From a virus (Duplodnaviria > Heunggongvirae > Uroviricota > Caudoviricetes), in the IMG/VR virus record IMGVR_UViG_2690316028_000010: a stretch of 10,491 nucleotides of DNA; one strand, given 5' to 3'. Positions 2,718 through 10,491 of the stretch are shown piece after piece (position 1 is the first letter of the stretch; every line of letters begins with the position of its first letter). The position numbers and the translations under genes are program-made. The notes below the pieces were generated by a model. The model saw nothing but the letters and a program-made list of their open reading frames with translations. It did no database searches and was not told the DNA's origin.

Positions 2718-3713
2718 ATGACTGACAATGTTTATACCCCTGACCAATTCCGCCCGCACTGGGGCGGTGTAGATGCTGACAACGACATTCACATTGAAGC
2801 GTATGACCGGGACGTTCAGACCCGCCTTGAGGCAAAGAGCGTGTTTCTCGCCGAGGGGCTGAGCACATACAAGCCGCTGAAAAACAGTAATCAGTATCGT
2901 GTAGACCGCCTGAGCGGAGATCTGGAGGTGAAGGGCAGAACCGCAGGGCAATCGCTGGAGCCTACCGCCGTTAAGTCGGACAAGCTGATTATCTCTGTGG
3001 ATACGCTGAGCTATATCCGCATCCCGATTGACTATCAAGACGACTGGACAGCGCCCACCTTTCGCGCAGAGCTGAGCCGCAACATGGGGACAGCCCATGC
3101 AAAGTTCTACGACGAAGCGCACACTATCCAGCTAATCAAAGCGACTGACTTTGTACCGCCGCCTACGTTGCAACCAACGTTTAACCCGCTGACGGATAAT
3201 GTTGTCTCGCTCGACCTGACAACGGGGAGCGAAGAGGATGCGGCTAACGAACTGGTTCACGCTATTAAAGCTGCTGTTAATCGATTCCTAACTGAAAAAG
3301 ATATTCCGGTGGCGGAGCTGTGCCTTCTCATCGACCCAGCTTGGTTCAGCATCCTGATGGAACATAAGAAGTTGATGAACGTCCGTTACAGCCGGGATAG
3401 TGGCAATGATTACGCATGGCGTCGCGTTGGCTATGTCGCTGGGGTGCGAGTTATTGAGCTGAACAGTTACCCGCAGGAAGCCATTACCGCGCATGAACTG
3501 GGCGCTGATTATGATGTGACCGCAGGGGAAGCGCTGACACGGGCGACGCTGTTCCGGCCTGCGTCTGTACTTGTGACAGTCGAAGCGCAGAGCGTTATCA
3601 ATCGCCAGTGGGATGATGAACGCGAAATGACAATGGTGATGGACTCATATCGCCTGTTCAATGTTGGGCTGCGCCGCCCTGACTGCGTTATAAATTTCCG
3701 ACAAGCTGCATAA
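2718..3713 (+). CDS. putative phage major capsid protein (HK97-fold / T7 gp10-like), 331 aa
   Basis: ATG 2718 with SD 'gggag' ~8 nt upstream; stop TAA 3711-3713. Several segments resemble T7-type capsid proteins from memory (e.g. 'IPVAELCLLIDPAWFSILM', C-terminal 'GLRRPDCVINFR'). Followed 17 nt later by an HNH gene, a common capsid-module neighbour. Similarity is by recall, not alignment. Confidence 0.5.
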   Translation: MTDNVYTPDQFRPHWGGVDADNDIHIEAYDRDVQTRLEAKSVFLAEGLSTYKPLKNSNQYRVDRLSGDLEVKGRTAGQSLEPTAVKSDKLIISVDTLSYIRIPIDYQDDWTAPTFRAELSRNMGTAHAKFYDEAHTIQLIKATDFVPPPTLQPTFNPLTDNVVSLDLTTGSEEDAANELVHAIKAAVNRFLTEKDIPVAELCLLIDPAWFSILMEHKKLMNVRYSRDSGNDYAWRRVGYVAGVRVIELNSYPQEAITAHELGADYDVTAGEALTRATLFRPASVLVTVEAQSVINRQWDDEREMTMVMDSYRLFNVGLRRPDCVINFRQAA

Positions 3714-3729: not shown

Positions 3730-4161
3730 ATGAATATTGATGCTTATGCCCCGGAGCTGTTGCGCTCTTTGTTTCGGTACGATGCGAAGACTGGCCGCCT
3801 GTTCCATGCAGTAGACCGGATCGGAGCCAACAAGCGGATTTACGCTAAAGCCGGGGAACTGGCCGACACGGTAACGGACAGCGCCGGATATAGGCGCGTA
3901 TCTGTCCGCATCAATGGCAAATCTCATGCGCTATACGCCCACCGTGTCGCCTTCATCATTGCTAATGACGGTATCCCTGCCGGGATGCAAATCGACCATA
4001 TCAACGCGGTACGCGATGACAACCGCCTTATCAATCTCCGCACGGTTACGCCACAAGAGAACCAGCACAATTACCGCAAAGCCAAGGGTTATAGCCACCA
4101 TGCCTGCTCTGGCAGATGGGAGGCTTACATTCGCGTTGGTGATCCACCGCGCGATAAATAA
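3730..4161 (+). CDS. HNH endonuclease (HNH_3-type, phage-associated), 143 aa
   Basis: ATG 3730 with SD 'aaagggg'; stop TAA 4159-4161. Clear HNH signature 'IDHINAVRDDNRLINLRTVTPQENQHN' and the N-terminal 'GYRRVSVRINGKSHALYAHRVAFI' pattern typical of this family. Confidence 0.85.
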   Translation: MNIDAYAPELLRSLFRYDAKTGRLFHAVDRIGANKRIYAKAGELADTVTDSAGYRRVSVRINGKSHALYAHRVAFIIANDGIPAGMQIDHINAVRDDNRLINLRTVTPQENQHNYRKAKGYSHHACSGRWEAYIRVGDPPRDK

Positions 4162-4200
4162 GCCGCAATCCGTGAGATAAATGGACACGGTGCGGCTTTT
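4161..4200. terminator. bidirectional intrinsic terminator candidate between convergent HNH and tape-measure genes
   Basis: Imperfect hairpin: 'agccgca' (4161-4167) pairs with 'tgcggct' (4191-4197), inner stem 'ccgtg'/'cacgg', followed by TTTT (4197-4200) on plus strand and an A/T-rich run on the other side. Lies in the 66-bp gap between the two converging stop codons. Confidence 0.5.
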
Positions 4201-4227
4201 CAGATACTGCAAAGGAATTACAGATTA

Positions 4228-6711
4228 TCAGTCGTAAGCAACCCGGCGCTTACGGGCAAGGATAGCTTCCAGTGCTCTTTCAATCTCAGGAATGGACAGC
4301 TTAAGCGCATTGGCCACATCCGGTGCTGGTGACTTGTTCTTGCCATCAATATAGATATTGTTAATGACGTTAATCCCGCCGCCTGCGCCTGCTGGTGAAT
4401 GAGAGTCCCGGCCTCTGGGTAAGGTAAGGTCGCCGCGCATATAGCGCTCTAATACGGGGGGTACTTTCGGCACATCCGGCACCATCATATCAGCCAGCCG
4501 CGAGGAGGCTTTCAGCGCCAGTGATGCAGACTGACCAATGCCAATCGCCGCCCCTTCTGCGATATTAGACCCGAAGCCCATAAATACACGGCTTGGCGAG
4601 TGAATCCCCAGCTTTTCCTTGAACCAGCCGCCGACACTGTCACCCATCTCAGTGACGGTATTCTTGAGAGACTCCCACTTGTTTTTGATACCGTTCACCA
4701 GTCCATCAATCAAGTGACCACCAAACTCAGTAAACTGGCCGGGAAGGTCGATGTTAAACCACTTCATGACCCCCGCAAACGCCTTGTAGAACAGCCCCAG
4801 CGGCGACCAGTTCAGGATTAGCTTACTGACACCAAGAACCCCGCCGTTAAAGGCTGTTTTCACTTCCTCCCACCGCTGCGAGAACCATCGGCTTATCGCG
4901 CCCCAGTTGCGGTAAATCAGGTACGCGCCCCCGGCGATGATGGTTATCGCAATGCCTATGGGGTTCATTAACAGCGCCCTGCCAAACCAGAGGAAAGCCT
5001 TTGCCACCACCATTACGCCTCTGAACAGTCCACCCGCCAGCGCTTTACCCAGCATTCCGGCTCCCTTCGCCACGGTACTGAATCCGGTAGCCAGCCAGCG
5101 CAGCTTTCCGCCGTCGCTCAGGGCGGTTTTGAGCAACAGCCAGTTAGTGCGCAGCAGTACGGCGTTTTTCCACAACCCGGCGAACGGTGATACCAGCAGA
5201 TTCAGGCCGAGTTTCAGCCCGACAGTGGCGATTTTCAGCCCCAGCAGTACGCCCACGGTTTTTGCCACACCCTGAACAATGCCGGGATGTTGCGCTATCC
5301 ATTGCCCGGTGGAATGAATCAGCGGAATCAGTTGCTGCGTCATTGACACGAACGAGGGAGACAGTTGACTGCCAAGGGTAATGGACAGTTCGCGGGTGCT
5401 GACCATCAGTGCTTTGGTCGCCTCCAGCGGCGATTTCAGTCGCTCCGTGTAGGAGGAGGCCAGCAGGTCTTTATCCGCCGCCTTAAGTGCGCCAGCCCTG
5501 ATTTCGCGGTATTTGTCCATGTTGGCGAGCATCGGACGGACAAACGCCATGACCTGCATATCGGCGAACATCTCACCCAGACCGAAATTCTTTGCCAGTT
5601 CCTGTAACGCAAGGTCGCGGGAGTTATCGTCCTTGATTTTCATTGCTTTCTTGAAGCCTGCCAGTGCTTCCGGGCTTTTGGCCTCCAGATACCTGCCCAT
5701 GACGCTTATCATGCCCTCAATGGGCGAGACGCCAGCAGATTTATAAGCCATGAGTGACCCCTGAAGGTCAATCCCGATATCGGCAAACTGTTTCTGCGTG
5801 TCGCGGGCAAAAATCTTGGTGAGGAAGTTACGGAAGTTGTTACCAGCCTCGTCAGATGACCCGGCACCAATTCGGGCAATCTGTAAACTCGCTCCGATTT
5901 CCGCCATCGCTTCTTTACCTTCGGCAATACCGCGCATCATCGGGGCAAGAGATGGCATCCATTTCACCTGGTCAGGTATTTCAAAAGACCCTTGGTCGCC
6001 TGCAAAGGCCATGATGTTCTGTACTTTGGCAAACTCTTTAGCGCTGCCATCCATCGAGTTTTTCCAGACGGCGGCAACCTTCGCCCATTCCGTCCCTGTG
6101 GTGCGTGTGGCAGTAGCGGCGCGGGCTATATTGGGCATGAAGCTGCCAATTTCGGACACACTGTCGATATTGTCACTGATAAGCGAGCCTACGGCGTCCT
6201 GTAAGTCGCTCTGGTACTGGTTGTACTTGAGCGACCATCCCCGGATTTGCTGCCCCAGACTGGCGCGGGTTTTATCGTCATATTTCGCCGTGATCGACAT
6301 ATCAATCATCTTGTCGTCGAACGTAGCCGACTGCTGAATCGCCGGGGAAACGAGGCTGTAAGCGGCTTTGGCCTGCGCCCACGTCTCAATTCCCTGTCCA
6401 TAAAGCGCCATCCGGTTAGCTCTCAGGGCATCGGTTGTGGCAGACGCTGCCGACAGGCGGGACTGCTGGCGGTTTAGTTGCTCCAGCGTTCTGCCTACCC
6501 GTTGCAGGTCATTGTTCAGGCGTGAGGCCACGCCTGAACCTACCTGACCGTAACGCTGCATGGCGCGTGACAGGCTGCTTTGTTGCTCGGTCAGGCGGCG
6601 TGACGTGTCGCCGAGAGAATCAAGCGCCCGCCGTGTGCCGCTGACGGCGGAACGGAAGCTGCTCCCGACAATACCGCCAATCATCACACCAACAGAAAAA
6701 TTATTGCTCAT
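4228..6711 (-). CDS. phage tail tape-measure protein, 827 aa
   Basis: ATG 6711-6709 with SD 'ggagtg'; stop at 4228. Helical N-terminal region, long central Gly/Ala/Leu-rich hydrophobic segment, and C-terminal 'GIHSPSRVF'-type motif that I recall from tape-measure proteins. Size is typical. Confidence 0.75.
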   Translation of the reverse strand: MSNNFSVGVMIGGIVGSSFRSAVSGTRRALDSLGDTSRRLTEQQSSLSRAMQRYGQVGSGVASRLNNDLQRVGRTLEQLNRQQSRLSAASATTDALRANRMALYGQGIETWAQAKAAYSLVSPAIQQSATFDDKMIDMSITAKYDDKTRASLGQQIRGWSLKYNQYQSDLQDAVGSLISDNIDSVSEIGSFMPNIARAATATRTTGTEWAKVAAVWKNSMDGSAKEFAKVQNIMAFAGDQGSFEIPDQVKWMPSLAPMMRGIAEGKEAMAEIGASLQIARIGAGSSDEAGNNFRNFLTKIFARDTQKQFADIGIDLQGSLMAYKSAGVSPIEGMISVMGRYLEAKSPEALAGFKKAMKIKDDNSRDLALQELAKNFGLGEMFADMQVMAFVRPMLANMDKYREIRAGALKAADKDLLASSYTERLKSPLEATKALMVSTRELSITLGSQLSPSFVSMTQQLIPLIHSTGQWIAQHPGIVQGVAKTVGVLLGLKIATVGLKLGLNLLVSPFAGLWKNAVLLRTNWLLLKTALSDGGKLRWLATGFSTVAKGAGMLGKALAGGLFRGVMVVAKAFLWFGRALLMNPIGIAITIIAGGAYLIYRNWGAISRWFSQRWEEVKTAFNGGVLGVSKLILNWSPLGLFYKAFAGVMKWFNIDLPGQFTEFGGHLIDGLVNGIKNKWESLKNTVTEMGDSVGGWFKEKLGIHSPSRVFMGFGSNIAEGAAIGIGQSASLALKASSRLADMMVPDVPKVPPVLERYMRGDLTLPRGRDSHSPAGAGGGINVINNIYIDGKNKSPAPDVANALKLSIPEIERALEAILARKRRVAYD

Positions 6712-6742
6712 GGTTCACTCCGGTTGAGTGGTTCGGTGGGCG

Positions 6743-7336
6743 TCATTCAGTCAGGGACAGGCCGCTGATTCCGGTAATCCCGGCAATTTCTTCGCTGACG
6801 GCTGCCAGTTCACTTTCAAGCCCGGTGCGTTCGCTGACCAGTGCCGCCACGGTCTTACGGCGCTCTGCCAGTGAGGGAAGTTTGTCATTACCCCACGTCA
6901 CGCTCTTATCCTTCTTAAGCGCTTCGGTCAGTCGGGTGGCGACCACATCCGGGAAGAAAAAGCAGAGCTTGCGCATTACCGCCATCCCGGTATCAGCCGG
7001 GGGGACGTTTCCTCCCAGCCCCACCAGACGGAACAGACCGGAAATATCGCCGTTCTCATTTTCCAGATTGCCCCAGCGTTCGGCGTTCCCTTCACCGCCG
7101 GAACCGTTGCAAAGAGCACGCTTGAATGACTGATATTCTTCCTGCCCGAATCGCTCAATATATTCAGGAATAAAGGAACAGTAATCATTAAGTGATAACG
7201 GCATATCCTGTAATGCGGTTATTTCGCCATTAATATCACCAATGCGACGAGAGAGCTTTTCTTTCTGCTCATTCAGGGAGGTAAGGTTATTTTTAACGGC
7301 GTTCAGTGCTTCAATGAGGGAAATAACAGGTTTCAT
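6743..7336 (-). CDS. hypothetical protein, 197 aa, coiled-coil-like N- and C-termini; possible scaffold-like or tail-assembly accessory protein
   Basis: ATG 7336-7334 lies 1 nt after the upstream gene's TAA (taaAATG) with SD 'ggag' inside the upstream gene's 3' end; stop TGA 6745-6743. Heptad-like ends; no slippery heptamer seen at the 3' end. Confidence 0.5.
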   Translation of the reverse strand: MKPVISLIEALNAVKNNLTSLNEQKEKLSRRIGDINGEITALQDMPLSLNDYCSFIPEYIERFGQEEYQSFKRALCNGSGGEGNAERWGNLENENGDISGLFRLVGLGGNVPPADTGMAVMRKLCFFFPDVVATRLTEALKKDKSVTWGNDKLPSLAERRKTVAALVSERTGLESELAAVSEEIAGITGISGLSLTE

Positions 7337-7337
7337 T

Positions 7338-7952
7338 TTAATAACTCCAGATAAAAGGTGTAGTGAGGGTGAGCGCTTCGGAATAGGAGACGTTGCAGGC
7401 TTCGCTTACATCCTTTATTAAAAGGTGCTGCGCTGCCCTCTGGCTGTCGGCTATGCCGTCGAGCTCTGAGAAATAAACGTGTGATTCATTGTGACCAAAA
7501 CAAACCGGGTAAGCGCTTTCCATAAACTCCACCTGCTCAAGCCCCTTTACGGCTGGCGGCTGTGCGCCGAGAAAACCAATATGGCGAAGATACCAGGCAC
7601 CAGTTCCGGCCGGGTTACGCGCTTCTCCCGGCCTGTAGAAAGCGGCAGACACTTTTTTATATAGACCTGACTGAACCATATCCAGCAACCTGTTATCAGG
7701 CTTAACCAGCGCGAAAAGTCTGCCGTTTTTACTTATCAGTCCGGTGGTTTCACCATAGGCGGGACTGTTACTGGCCGGATGCCCCAGGCACAGCGGCGCA
7801 CCATAACCCGCGCGATGATAGCCGTTATAGGCTGCTGCCATGTTGTCGATATCCTCGTCGGAAAAGCTGATTTCCTGCCCCGCCATCGCGGTATGTGTTC
7901 CCGCCCGGAATATCTCAATAGTTTTCCAGTTACCAATATTGATATCTGTCAT
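7338..7952 (-). CDS. putative GPO-family prohead protease / capsid scaffolding protein, N-terminal protease-like domain, 204 aa
   Basis: ATG 7952-7950; stop TAA 7340-7338. Recalled resemblance to P2 gpO N-terminus: 'FRAGTHTAMAGQEISFSDEDIDNMAAAY' vs gpO 'FRIGVEGDTCDGRVISAQDIQEMAETF', and 'LCLGH' vs gpO 'INLEH'. Shorter than P2 gpO (~284 aa). Confidence 0.55.
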   Translation of the reverse strand: MTDINIGNWKTIEIFRAGTHTAMAGQEISFSDEDIDNMAAAYNGYHRAGYGAPLCLGHPASNSPAYGETTGLISKNGRLFALVKPDNRLLDMVQSGLYKKVSAAFYRPGEARNPAGTGAWYLRHIGFLGAQPPAVKGLEQVEFMESAYPVCFGHNESHVYFSELDGIADSQRAAQHLLIKDVSEACNVSYSEALTLTTPFIWSY

Positions 7953-7953
7953 T

Positions 7954-8481
7954 TTATATTTGTCCCTGTTTCATATCGCGGCACTCTTTGTTTTTCTTAC
8001 GCTCGGCGGCAATAATCTGATAAATCCACTGAATAGAATTGCCATATTTCCTGGCTAATTCCCGATGAGTCATCCCTTGTTTGTAATCGGAAAATATCCT
8101 GGCATTTCTGTCGAAAGAGTTTCTGGCTGCGCCATTAGGTATATAGAAATTGTTACCTTTAAAGACCCTTCTAAGGTGTTCTGTAATTTCCGGGGAAATG
8201 ATTTCGGCCTGAGCCGAAAAGCAATGTATTGTAAGCAAAGCCTGCGCTATCACACCTGTAAGCTCATGCAGAAAAGATGTTGCTTTAGGGGCGTCTTCAC
8301 ATTCTATTGGCATGTAATTCTGGCAACCACCAAGATTATCAGATATATGCAAAACAATTTTATTTGCTGCACTACTTGCCTGAAGTTGTGAATAGCCCGC
8401 ATCAGTCAGAAAATCTTCAATCGCATCCCCCATTTCCCCCAGAGTGTCAGATGTTGCGTACAATCCCTCTCTTGTAATCAT
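7954..8481 (-). CDS. Mor/C-family transcriptional activator (Mu middle/late activator family), ~175 aa from ATG 8481
   Basis: C-terminal region matches the Mor pattern: 'NFYIPNGAARNSF' (cf. Mor 'QVYIPRG'), 'RIFSDYKQGMTHRELARKYGNSIQWIYQIIAAERKK' (HTH). ATG 8481-8479 has SD 'gagg' ~7 nt upstream; the ORF-track start at 8487 is a GTG too close to the SD. Stop TAA 7956-7954, 1 nt before the next gene's start. Confidence 0.75.
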   Translation of the reverse strand: MITREGLYATSDTLGEMGDAIEDFLTDAGYSQLQASSAANKIVLHISDNLGGCQNYMPIECEDAPKATSFLHELTGVIAQALLTIHCFSAQAEIISPEITEHLRRVFKGNNFYIPNGAARNSFDRNARIFSDYKQGMTHRELARKYGNSIQWIYQIIAAERKKNKECRDMKQGQI

Positions 8482-8509
8482 AATCACACCTCGGTAATGA
8501 TAAAGATGT

Positions 8510-8614
8510 GCGCTAAAAAGGCTTTATAAAGCTTTATGAGGCGTCTTTCTGGTGACAAATCAGCACATACACCATTAACGCTTTAAAATGGCTTACAGGC
8601 TTTTTTAGCGCGGG
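8510..8614. promoter_or_regulatory. regulatory region upstream of the Mor-like gene: 12-bp palindrome, tandem 'gctttat' and flanking 10-bp inverted repeats
   Basis: 'ataaagctttat' perfect palindrome at 8526-8537; 'gctttat' at 8521-8527 and 8531-8537. 'gcgctaaaaa' (8510-8519) is the inverse of 'tttttagcgc' (8602-8611). Promoter hexamers not confidently assigned. Confidence 0.35.
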
Positions 8615-8681
8615 TTACTAATGTGGATTAAGAATATGGTTTTGGGGCGGGGATGTTTTTTAATGTACTTTAGATATGAAG

Positions 8682-8703
8682 AAGCCCCTCAGAGGAGGGG
8701 CTT
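8682..8703. terminator. GC-rich hairpin (9-bp stem, 4-nt loop) immediately downstream of the 96-aa gene; candidate intrinsic terminator
   Basis: 'aagcccctc' (8682-8690) pairs perfectly with 'gaggggctt' (8695-8703), loop 'agag'. Sits 17 nt past the TAA at 8722-8720; the flanking run on the minus-strand transcript is only moderately U-rich. Confidence 0.45.
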
Positions 8704-8719
8704 GCGGGATTACGCCAGA

Positions 8720-9010
8720 TTATTGAGGTCGTCTGTCTTTCCTCAATCCATCAAGTAGCGCCATGGCATCAGTAACCAGTATGCCAGCAGCATCCGTAAC
8801 CATCGAAACATCAGAGGATGCACATGATTTATCCATACCTAATGTTGACGCAAAATCAAGTAGCTTACGAACTGCGTCAAGTCGATAGGTGGCAGAGTCG
8901 TAAATTAACTCCTGATTAGCATCAGTCTTTAAAAACATAATATCATCAGAGGCACCTTGCGAAAATGACGGCATCGCACGGAAAGTATTTTGAGTTTCAG
9001 CCTGTTTCAT
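8720..9010 (-). CDS. hypothetical protein, 96 aa
   Basis: ATG 9010-9008 overlaps the upstream gene's TGA (ATGA, coupling); SD 'ggagg' ~8 nt upstream; stop TAA 8722-8720. Confidence 0.5.
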   Translation of the reverse strand: MKQAETQNTFRAMPSFSQGASDDIMFLKTDANQELIYDSATYRLDAVRKLLDFASTLGMDKSCASSDVSMVTDAAGILVTDAMALLDGLRKDRRPQ

Positions 9011-9744
9011 TGTGCAGTCCTCCGGCTAATAGCGAATTTATTATAAACTTCATAACTGGCAGCATTCAGTCCGGGGTTGTATTTATCAGCCAGAGCACAG
9101 GCAATCATATGTTCAATAAATTTTGTTATTGCGTTAAGTTCAGTTTCGTTTGAATAACGCAATGCCACTTTGAGTAACTCGCGGCAATATTGTTTTTTAT
9201 TCCCTTCGATTTGGCCTGATTTTTTTATTCCTGCCTTTTTATCTGATTCATCCTCAACAGGCAAAGATGGGATATCCTCTTTATTGGTTAGCGTTCTTTC
9301 GCAAATAATATCTTCACCAGATTGAATTACGCGCTGCAACTCTCTGGCGCTCATACGAAGAATATCATCAAGCGTGTGGTCGTTATATGCCCCACCACTG
9401 GCAAGGAGATCCAGTGTCACTTCATCCAGCCGGGCAAGCAGGTTTAACTTCGTTTTGCCGATACTTGTTTTGGCAATTGCGGCTCGGGGGGTATTGGTTA
9501 CGCCAAATATCAGAGCAACCCGCATAGCATTATGGGCTTCACGTTTATTAATTCCCCCCACTGAAAGCGCCTTTGCAAATTCCTCATTTGTTTTTGTTGC
9601 TTCCTTAAGTGCCAGCATCTCTTTACCACGATGCACTAAAGTTTCAGTCGGGGTTGGCAAAAGGAGTACAGCATCTAAAATTTTTTCCCGAAGTACATCA
9701 ACTTGGCTTGCGATGCATGAACGGTTAGACTTGTTGATACCCAT
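9007..9744 (-). CDS. hypothetical protein, ~245 aa from ATG 9744 (ORF track begins at TTG 9765); candidate early/regulatory protein
   Basis: ATG 9744-9742 preceded by SD 'gagga' ~9 nt upstream; stop TGA 9009-9007. Acidic/Lys-rich linker mid-protein; no P-loop or other catalytic motif recognised. Divergent from the RHH gene. Confidence 0.5.
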   Translation of the reverse strand: MGINKSNRSCIASQVDVLREKILDAVLLLPTPTETLVHRGKEMLALKEATKTNEEFAKALSVGGINKREAHNAMRVALIFGVTNTPRAAIAKTSIGKTKLNLLARLDEVTLDLLASGGAYNDHTLDDILRMSARELQRVIQSGEDIICERTLTNKEDIPSLPVEDESDKKAGIKKSGQIEGNKKQYCRELLKVALRYSNETELNAITKFIEHMIACALADKYNPGLNAASYEVYNKFAISRRTAQ

Positions 9745-9774
9745 GATTGTTATCCTCAATAACAATGGTGGTCA

Positions 9775-9809
9775 GGCAGGATGTGATACTGAACCTATCA
9801 TGTCCTGCC
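9775..9809. promoter_or_regulatory. imperfect dyad symmetry (13-bp arms, 11/13 matching, 9-bp spacer) upstream of the 245-aa gene
   Basis: 'ggcaggatgtgat' (9775-9787) vs 'atcatgtcctgcc' (9797-9809). Could be an operator or a 5'-UTR hairpin of the minus-strand transcript. Confidence 0.3.
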
Positions 9810-9840
9810 GCTTGCGGTTTTACATCTACTTAATGTAATG

Positions 9841-9877
9841 TACGTACCATTGATTTCAATCTAAACAATGGTACGTA
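9841..9877. promoter_or_regulatory. perfect 12-bp inverted repeat with 13-bp spacer (candidate operator) overlapping the RHH gene start codon
   Basis: 'tacgtaccattg' (9841-9852) and its exact reverse complement 'caatggtacgta' (9866-9877). The right arm covers the ATG at 9868-9870. Located in the divergent promoter region. Confidence 0.55.
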
Positions 9878-10071
9878 TCATGTCAAGAGTAAAAGATAAC
9901 ACGCCTAAAAATTCCGCAGGGCGTTCCCCGACCTTCCAAATACGTATTACACCTGAACTTAGGGAACAGCTTGATAAAGAAGCTCTTAAAGATGGTGTAA
10001 GTTTGGCCAATTGGCTCAAAGGCATTGCACGAGATGAACTACGCAGGAGAGGTATTTCTCCAAAAGGGTAG
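9868..10071 (+). CDS. ribbon-helix-helix (Arc/MetJ-like) DNA-binding protein, 67 aa; putative repressor
   Basis: 'FQIRITPELREQLDKEALKDGVSLANWLKGIARDEL' fits the RHH beta-strand plus two helices (cf. Arc 'FNLRWPREVLDLVRKVAEENGRSVNSEIYQRVMESF'). ATG 9868 (alternative ATG 9880), both with weak SD; stop TAG 10069-10071. Confidence 0.6.
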   Translation: MVRIMSRVKDNTPKNSAGRSPTFQIRITPELREQLDKEALKDGVSLANWLKGIARDELRRRGISPKG

Positions 10072-10086
10072 GGCTAATCAGGTACA

Positions 10087-10476
10087 AAAAGCGAAAACGT
10101 TTTCGCTTTTATGGCTAAGAGAGCGGATGCACTCATTAAAGCGGACAGCGCTGTCCGCCTCCAATCAGCAAAAAAACAAGATGGTTCCTCCAAAACGCTC
10201 AACGTTGAGCGTTACGTTATTCCGACAAAAGCGCAGGCGCTTGCGCTTTTGAAAGGGATCAACACGGCTTTCAAACCGGACAACGTTGACCGCTTTAAGG
10301 AATCACTGTCGGCTGAGCAAAAACGGCAAGCGCTTGCCGTTTTAGATTCGCGGGGCGGTAAACGTTTACCGTTCTGTGTCAATTATGTTCAAAAGCGAAA
10401 GCGCTTTCGCATTTTCTCACCTAAAGCGGCAAACCTCCTCTGTCTTAGCTGGAAAAACGACATCGCTGTCGTTTTT
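10087..10476. repeat. array of eight hairpin-capable palindromes of one family (A-tract, CG-rich core, T-tract)
   Basis: P1 10087-10110 aaaagcgaaaac|gttttcgctttt (perfect, 24 bp); P2 10141-10158 gcggacagc|gctgtccgc (perfect); P3 10194-10213 aacgctcaac|gttgagcgtt (perfect); P4 10227-10250 (1 mismatch); P5 10320-10343 aaaacggcaagc|gcttgccgtttt (perfect); P6 10356-10371 cggtaaac|gtttaccg (perfect); P7 10391-10414 (1 mismatch); P8 10453-10476 aaaaacgaca-tcgc-tgtcgttttt. Symmetry kept while sequence differs between copies. Confidence 0.85.
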
Positions 10477-10491
10477 AATCCGAGGTTCTAA
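10111..10491 (+). CDS. ORF of 126 aa overlapping the palindrome array; coding status doubtful
   Basis: ATG 10111 directly after palindrome P1, stop TAA 10489-10491 at window end. Repeated peptide motifs (KAQALALL, KRQALAVL, KRKRFRIF) are direct consequences of the DNA palindromes, so the frame may be open by chance. Confidence 0.3.
   Translation: MAKRADALIKADSAVRLQSAKKQDGSSKTLNVERYVIPTKAQALALLKGINTAFKPDNVDRFKESLSAEQKRQALAVLDSRGGKRLPFCVNYVQKRKRFRIFSPKAANLLCLSWKNDIAVVFNPRF

Follow-up and report, generated by a model that had tools for sequence, protein, structure and literature searches.

The sites recognised by ParB/Spo0J (parS) and by Noc (the Noc binding sites, NBS) are 16 bp long, and KorB of the IncP plasmids, with which KfrA may also be compared, uses OB sites of one sequence. 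Ribbon-helix-helix (RHH) proteins such as ParR, ParG, omega and MetJ bind arrays of repeats. In phage lambda, the origin iterons lie in the O gene, so that the cis site of an early phage DNA-binding protein is found inside its own coding sequence. Cloned phage origins interfere with infection ('Per', in phages of lactic acid bacteria), since copies present on another replicon can titrate the phage protein. Here we analyse an array of palindromes at the end of a 10,491-nucleotide stretch of DNA (hereafter the window) from a virus of the Caudoviricetes (IMG/VR record IMGVR_UViG_2690316028_000010). Its units are 26 bp long and, in contrast to parS, NBS and OB, have arms that differ between copies.

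The array (10086-10491, no strand assigned) contains nine different palindromic units, and units of the same design occur singly inside genes of the DUF3102 family (Pfam PF11300). We put at about 0.5 the probability that the array is a cluster of parS- or operator-like sites in duplex DNA for dimeric DUF3102-family proteins, whose binding we infer. The data indicate a DUF3102-family protein as the partner, rather than the RHH protein encoded next to the array.

Anatomy and distribution of the palindromic units

If arms are required to be 8 nt or longer and a single mismatch is tolerated, positions 10086-10477 of the window contain nine palindromes, whose arms measure 8-14 nt; they are at 10087-10110, 10139-10160, 10194-10213, 10226-10251, 10277-10292, 10318-10345, 10356-10371, 10391-10414 and 10453-10476. 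The fifth lengthens to 10273-10296 if two mismatches are allowed. Four are perfect across 16-24 bp (10087-10110, 10194-10213, 10320-10343 and 10356-10371), and 10141-10158 is a perfect palindrome of 18 bp. A preliminary description of this DNA, made from the sequence alone, gave eight palindromes, five of them perfect, at a density far beyond chance. The total is nine rather than eight, and the density holds: when the 390-bp region was shuffled 1000 times with its dinucleotides preserved, the mean was 0.27 palindromes and the maximum two, and the remaining 10,086 bp of the window contain three comparable ones. All nine palindromes have CG at the centre, within a hexamer that is AACGTT, AGCGCT or a one-base variant of these, and most have AAA(A) to their left and (T)TTT to their right.

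The units are, in order, unit 1 (AAAAGCGAAAACGTTTTCGCTTTT, 10086-10111), unit 2 (core GCGGACAGCGCTGTCCGC, 10137-10162), unit 3 (AACGCTCAACGTTGAGCGTT, 10191-10216), unit 4 (CAAAAGCGCAGGCGCTTGCGCTTTTG, 10226-10251), unit 5 (AAACCGGACAACGTTGACCGCTTT, 10272-10297), unit 6 (AAAACGGCAAGCGCTTGCCGTTTT, 10319-10344), unit 7 (CGGTAAACGTTTACCG, 10351-10376), unit 8 (AAAAGCGAAAGCGCTTTCGCATTT, 10390-10415) and unit 9 (AAAAACGACATCGCTGTCGTTTTT, 10452-10477). Unit 5 has an internal A.A mismatch, which is kept in the relatives described below.

The window has three groups of relatives. The first is a Citrobacter plasmid (L001), 88% identical over window positions 4140-10320; the second comprises SSU5-like phage-plasmids of Enterobacter hormaechei (L002); and the third is a small island at a tRNA-Ser gene in the clpA-infA interval (L169), present in 32 complete E. 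coli genomes, including sequence type 131 (ST131) strains. Homologous arrays are found in L001, L164, L169 and L225. Because these span 500-850 bp and have 11-17 units, the array is probably cut by the window end, up to which it extends; continuation beyond this point had been raised as something to check. The homologous arrays are unannotated in public records where annotation could be inspected; the searched plasmid record and the E. coli RefSeq chromosomes carry no annotation of the region. BLAST searches with the array against phages, near and distant, gave no match.

L002 has the gene order of the window and no array: its RHH gene is followed by a gap of 30 bp and then a gene for a 318-residue protein. 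In L169 the array is placed between the RHH gene and a homologue of this 318-residue gene. In this rightward operon the array is thus an insertion between genes that may be present or absent. The 318-residue protein aligns with the C-terminal half of the DUF3102 protein (E 6e-10), and in the relatives the gene past the array is homologous to the N-terminus and the C-terminal half of the DUF3102 protein of Mu-like phages.

Comparison of the arrays shows that whole units come and go. A 24-bp indel corresponds to exactly one unit (AAAACGACAACGTTGTCGTTTTTA; window 10313-10320 against L169 9255-9280 and L164 6736-6761), and L164 7030-7055 is a hybrid that joins the left half of a unit in L001 to the right half of the following one. 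Gain, loss and fusion of units therefore occur at their centres.

The same design is found much more widely. A scan of IMG/VR and of one genome per species for a pattern of two units identified arrays in unrelated elements across bacterial phyla, with hosts including Streptococcus ('satellite phage Javan' records), Lachnospiraceae, Ruminococcaceae, Pelotomaculum, Flavonifractor, Thiobacillus, Magnetococcales and Spirochaetales. The design is CAAA(W)-N4-(C/A)A-N-CG-N'-T(G/T)-N4'-(W)TTTG, and the consensus of 113 pooled distinct units is C-A-A-A-(T/A)-N4-(C/A)-A-N-C|G-N'-T-(G/T)-N4'-(A/T)-T-T-T-G. At the variable positions, 86-97% of units are symmetric, where independent halves would give 26-40%; the observed figure is somewhat inflated by the pre-selection of units with at least 10 of 13 positions paired. 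The arrays hold 3-17 differing versions of the unit, in intergenic DNA of phage-plasmids, of the E. coli ST131 island and of Streptococcus satellites. They are located at module borders, where a cI-like gene meets int, upstream of fic or of RHH genes, or after replication genes. In satellites, array units are embedded in short fragments of DUF3102 genes (L185, L186, L227 and L232). A looser single-unit pattern, AAAGCG-N5-CG-N5-CGCTTT, was also run against IMG/VR; among the matches listed it returned mostly isolated hairpins and, apart from L139, was uninformative.

Two of these elements deserve description in their own right. L230, from a Ruminococcaceae host, has two arrays (5119-5288 and 5890-6093) with a regular period of about 36 bp, conserved Shine-Dalgarno-like linkers (GGGGAAAGG and GGAGAAAACAATT) and a third type of centre, ACCGGT. 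Each array ends right at the start codon of a small RHH-like gene, and a 668-residue DUF3102 protein, whose gene has a perfect in-gene unit, is encoded 5 kb downstream of them. In a Streptococcus intermedius island (L171 and L233), an array of four units precedes a Fic/Doc-family gene by 25 bp; the island further carries Abi-like and TIR-like genes and an integrase, a context like that of a defence island.

Arms that vary in sequence and are conserved in structure could also mean that the units are read by structure, as extruded DNA hairpins or cruciforms, or as single-strand hairpins, at an origin, priming signal or recombination site. One Streptococcus satellite array lies just after replication genes, and the whole-unit gain and loss and the hybrid unit would suggest breakage and joining at unit centres. 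However, the positions of the arrays are varied (next to int, fic, RHH and morphogenesis genes), the conserved centre and flank bases indicate that sequence is read, and loop-free arms of 12-13 bp are short for extrusion. We regard this explanation as improbable.

The palindrome inside DUF3102 genes

Isolated units are found within long open reading frames, at one fixed codon position of DUF3102-family proteins: right after the segment ..A.R.M..A..F and before G(K/S)TK(L/M). The peptides that they encode vary (PNSSTLSNL, SNFAPVQNL, AKRRPVAAL, PKAQALALL), while the DNA stays a palindrome with 12-13 of 13 positions paired. This degree of pairing is retained in distant hosts (L230, L139, L163-166, L232, L227, L319-322, B3 ORF13 and BcepMu gp10); phage 7T_025, whose protein has a Pfam DUF3102 match with E 5.9e-9, pairs at only 10 of 13. 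In Pseudomonas phage B3 the unit of ORF13 (CAAAACGGACAACGTTGTCCGTTTTG, 13/13) is directly upstream of the transposase gene, and in Burkholderia phage BcepMu that of gp10 (CAAAAGCGGCGTTAACGCCGCTTTTG, 13/13) is directly upstream of the Mu-type transposase gene. The BcepMu unit (L325 2733-2758) is centred on TT|AA (GTTAAC) and not on CG, and the central CG is therefore not universal in the DUF3102 family. DUF3102 genes that lack an in-gene unit have units or arrays nearby, as in the lineage of the window, L235, L206, L229 and L207.

A set of 80 orthologous DUF3102 genes was examined, from Mu-like prophages of Enterobacterales of 33-42 kb in which ner-like or helix-turn-helix genes are followed by the DUF3102 gene and then by a Mu-type transposase gene. 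They contain 27 forms of the palindrome, paired at 13/13 in 54 genes, 12/13 in 15 and 11/13 in 8; elsewhere in these genes, 65,000 positions include none with as many as 11 pairs. In the alignment 96.9% of cells are paired, against 32-51% in controls in which the position was slid. Changes on both sides occur at 8 of the 13 pairs, and there are 100 doubly changed cells compared with 28 in shuffles (0 of 500 shuffles reach the observed value). This is formal covariation, and it bears out the earlier suggestion that selection maintains self-complementarity while the copies vary in sequence. The compensatory changes alter the encoded protein. The three-base periodicity of diversity that characterises the gene vanishes inside the unit, where synonymous variation is suppressed at conserved bases and the arms vary at positions that change the amino acid.

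The in-gene palindromes and the array units are the same element. Units 1, 4 and 6 of the window are identical at 24/24 positions to forms among the 80 genes, unit 6 to the commonest of them (15 of the 80), and unit 8 differs from an in-gene form by a single base. Unit 4 is identical to the palindrome that encodes PKAQALALLG; its solitary copies in unrelated viral contigs are within the DUF3102 genes of L162, L163, L165 and L166. The arrays of L001, L164, L169 and L225 contain further exact or near matches to in-gene forms, and base preferences are common to the non-coding array units and the in-gene forms. The orthologue of unit 8 in L169 and L164 has an AACGTT centre, which is again a change on both sides.

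Could these palindromes be neutral or selfish? Template switching in quasi-palindromes is an established mutational mechanism by which one arm is corrected to the other, and if it equalised the arms here, the arrays might be functionless recombination scars carrying pieces of DUF3102 genes. In keeping with this, arm positions vary at about the rate of synonymous sites, two near-identical genes (L273 and L284) differ by a double change at ±2 (AACGTT against AGCGCT), there are gene fragments within arrays, and units of the E. coli island are partly decayed. Against it, elements from different phyla that are unrelated to one another have arrays of this design, the non-coding units share the base preferences of the in-gene ones, and arrays of 9-17 units persist in the 32 E. 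coli genomes. Neutrality therefore seems a poor explanation, although template switching may still be part of how symmetry is kept, as discussed below.

A more serious alternative, though still a doubtful one, is that the units function as RNA. Most arrays are between co-directional genes and hence are transcribed, and the units might be hairpins in the early-operon transcript. There they could govern the processing or stability of the RNA, or work as attenuators, as antitermination signals or as a CsrB-like sponge that takes up an RNA-binding protein. The in-gene copy would have its effect on the message immediately upstream of the transposase gene. The array region folds strongly as RNA (z = -6.0), the stems covary, the A-run and U-run flanks resemble those of bidirectional terminators, and G.U is the commonest non-Watson-Crick combination on the sense strand (12 cells). 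The G.U cases, however, trace to one synonymous CAA/CAG change in one lineage. In addition, symmetry and covariation extend to position ±2, which is within any possible loop, and the centre is itself palindromic. It is this symmetry up to the central base pairs, with no loop, that favours a dimer on duplex DNA over a hairpin of either RNA or DNA. The predicted fold of the partner protein, described in the next section, is likewise that of a DNA-binding domain.

Searches for known types of RNA element point the same way. The preliminary description had listed a structured RNA and a cluster of terminators among the candidate roles, and the terminator cluster is not supported. Rfam 15 covariance models, run on the window and ten array loci, matched nothing at the arrays. 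A scan of 792 bp for intrinsic terminators (G+C-rich stem, loop of 3-8 nt, then at least five T in eight) gave three matches where 1.1 are expected, and only one of the nine units, unit 8, qualified, with two overlapping calls.

The DUF3102 protein and the neighbouring genes

DUF3102 is a large family, with more than 1,600 homologues for one member alone. Full-text literature searches found no functional work on it and no description of such palindromes in phages. The AlphaFold2 model of a 302-residue DUF3102 protein (mean predicted local distance difference test score, pLDDT, 70.7; about 75-87 across residues 60-170) consists of helices throughout and has a long coiled coil in its C-terminal part. 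The palindrome encodes a short helix, residues 115-122, which is the next after a helix at 96-109. The model of the DUF3102 domain is closest to the DNA-binding domains of Spo0J/ParB and KorB, and we therefore predict a ParB/KorB-like DNA-binding fold. Pfam finds DUF3102 as the sole domain of these proteins, with no N-terminal CTP-binding domain of the ParB type; the N-terminus of the model is helical or disordered. Foldseek and sequence-profile searches of the PDB with the DUF3102 protein returned only coiled-coil noise, and PADLOC only weak coiled-coil matches.

The window is phage-like, encoding a major head protein, an HNH endonuclease, a tape measure protein, a Mor-type activator, a DUF3102-like protein and a small RHH protein. 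The DUF3102-family gene, whose product is the candidate binder, is at 9007-9765 on the minus strand, with its likely start at the ATG at 9744; it is divergent, lies 320 bp upstream of the array and has no in-gene unit. Its assignment comes from a BLASTP match of the 9007-9744 protein to the DUF3102 domain of P0001 (E 2e-10), a tblastn match from L139 (E 6.6e-8) and membership of PHROG 1748, and its homologue in L002 carries a DUF3102 annotation.

Directly upstream of the array is the RHH gene (9868-10071, plus strand), which is YlcI/YnfO/HicB-like and Arc-like. As noted above, proteins of this class bind repeat arrays; the gene abuts the array, and in L230 two arrays are directly upstream of small RHH genes. 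These points favour the version of the preliminary description, a centromere or operator bound by the adjacent RHH protein. The RHH gene has, however, an inverted repeat of its own over its start (9841-9877; 15-nt arms, 93% complementary, 7-nt gap), and at the same place L001 (5717-5757), L164 and L169 have other inverted repeats, which vary with the RHH protein, whereas the array units are shared. The 9841-9877 repeat is probably the operator of the RHH protein, within a divergent control region; promoter-like hexamers are seen on the minus strand at this repeat. Furthermore, arrays are absent from all 38 IMG/VR loci that encode RHH relatives, L002 has the RHH gene without the array, and many arrays have no RHH gene nearby. 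The RHH protein is probably not the array binder, and we consider this version of the hypothesis very improbable.

An open reading frame of 126 codons with an ATG start (10111-10491, plus strand) overlaps the array. We judge it fortuitous, as the preliminary description had already supposed in doubting that it was the main function of the region. No relative keeps the frame intact: indels of 1, 2, 13 and 24 nt and 4-14 stops per frame occur in the orthologous regions of L169 and L164. Moreover, the units of the window fall in different reading frames within it, it has no Pfam or PHROG match, and the region is unannotated in the plasmid record and the E. coli chromosomes mentioned above. That the region encodes a 126-residue protein is hardly credible.

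Some further features of the window and its relatives may be recorded. The major head protein gene (2718-3713) is directly followed by the HNH endonuclease gene (3730-4161), a pairing typical of HK97-like cos packaging modules, which in the window stands apart from any terminase gene. Beyond the window end, between the array and a gp27-like small-terminase gene, L001 (6650-6960) and L164 (7190-7500) conserve an element of about 240 bp with a strong terminator-like hairpin, flanked by inverted repeats of about 35 bp (ctgttagtggatgcgtgacgcgctc and gagcgcgtcacgcatccactaaca); it could be a miniature inverted-repeat transposable element, an invertible segment or a small RNA gene. The L169 island (E. 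coli ZH063 chromosome, 948-954 kb) is 6 kb long, adjoins the tRNA-Ser gene between clpA and infA, and consists of two hypothetical genes, Mor, a DUF3102-like remnant, the RHH gene, a 17-unit array, a truncated homologue of the 318-residue gene and IS5. It resembles a decayed satellite or the remains of a Mu-related element.

Possible functions and comparison with known systems

The anatomy of the units, their covariation, the linkage of gene and site, the identity of array units to in-gene forms and the resemblance of the modelled fold are observations; we infer both that DUF3102 proteins bind the palindrome and what such binding might achieve. The most economical reading is that of a ParB/KorB-like protein with a dyad-symmetric site, which other mobile elements have arrayed. 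The suggestion in the preliminary description of dimeric protein sites, or of a centromere-like site, thus came close to the best explanation, except in naming the RHH protein as the partner.

We propose that the DUF3102 protein has a helix-turn-helix domain of the ParB/KorB type followed by a coiled coil, and acts as a dimer. Each 26-bp unit is the cis element that many phages have once, within the DUF3102 gene, as parS is found in spo0J. About one helical turn separates the conserved centre (±1 to 4) from the conserved flanks (±9 to 13), and positions ±5 to 8 would then face the protein via the minor groove. The symmetry of bases that are not read could be due to correction of one arm from the other by template switching, to a need for extrusion, or to read-out by the helix that the palindrome encodes.

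In the window, the units stand at the head of a rightward early operon, with the RHH (Cro/Ner-like) gene before them and, in the relatives, a DUF3102-homologous gene after them. Protein bound to 9-17 adjacent sites would form a large nucleoprotein complex, which might gate or silence transcription into the downstream genes or act as a landing pad. Two options follow. The array may be a cis platform for the DUF3102-like proteins of the element itself, gating the early operon that starts at the RHH gene. Alternatively, since the units match forms carried by Mu-like prophages whose hosts belong to the same order, it may be a decoy or hijack pad that titrates or recruits the DUF3102 proteins of Mu-like phages sharing the host range. 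In agreement with this second option, the lineage has Mor and gp27-like genes and the E. coli island is satellite-like; both options fit the absence of an in-gene site from the lineage's own DUF3102 gene. A stronger version, which is speculative, is that arrays are natural libraries of the in-gene parS-like forms of many phages, collected by a resident element (phage-plasmid, island or satellite) to titrate DUF3102, as an origin- or operator-decoy defence, or to hijack it in the manner of a satellite. Linked to this is the possibility that the palindrome codes for the helix by which it is read, in which case one mutational step would shift the specificity of site and reader together and give rise to orthogonal protein-site pairs.

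If the binding proposed here is correct, it provides a first testable function for DUF3102, a large orphan family whose gene is next to that for the transposase in B3 and BcepMu, both model Mu-like phages. The in-gene unit is a non-coding element that overlaps coding sequence and keeps perfect dyad symmetry while both DNA and peptide change. Should the arrays titrate or recruit the proteins of phages, mobile elements would be interfering with or hijacking one another by means of DNA only, and the carriers are very different from each other (enterobacterial phage-plasmids, an E. coli ST131 island and Streptococcus satellites). Units diverse in sequence and putatively equal in function could also be of practical use as ready-made, non-recombining binding sites.

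It remains to place the array among known systems. Repetitive extragenic palindromes and bacterial interspersed mosaic elements (REP/BIME) are likewise clustered imperfect palindromes, but REPs are of one sequence of about 35 bp per genome, chromosomal and associated with RAYT transposases, whereas the present units are all different and restricted to mobile elements. Integron attC sites also conserve structure while varying in sequence; they differ in being 57-141 bp long, having extrahelical bases and flanking cassettes. Neither REP nor attC is tied to a coding position in a gene family. The PARCEL palindromic coding repeats are tandem 75-nt repeats encoding a 25-residue amphipathic motif (DUF285) (PMC2996958), and are ruled out because the array has no period and no conserved open reading frame. 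Operators of the LacI family, cre, and the sites of CRP, Noc and LexA as generally known were considered as look-alikes; their spacing or position ±4 does not fit.

Among protein-bound arrays, the RHH systems (ParR-parC, ParG, omega and MetJ boxes) are distinguished by change of site together with protein and by their co-occurrence, and the array follows the RHH gene in neither. KorB-OB, with its single site sequence, differs also in context, the array having no KorA, IncC or ParA nearby and no detectable sequence similarity. The resemblance to lambda O and Per is that the putative DUF3102 site is within its own gene and that copies elsewhere might likewise titrate the protein; by contrast, iterons are direct repeats with one specificity per phage, and DUF3102 has no evidence of a role as replication initiator. 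For Per, we know of no natural array that combines many sequence forms, and as a probable docking platform with multiple sites the arrangement appears not to have been described before. Partition systems differ in that the elements bearing arrays include integrated prophages, which need no partition, and neither the window nor the 12-19 kb examined of L001, L002 and L169 has a ParA/SopA ATPase gene; compared with ParB/Spo0J, the DUF3102 protein has a long coiled coil in place of the N-terminal CTPase domain. What the array does share with ParB-parS is the presence of several dyad-symmetric sites near or inside the gene of the DUF3102 protein that is predicted to bind them.
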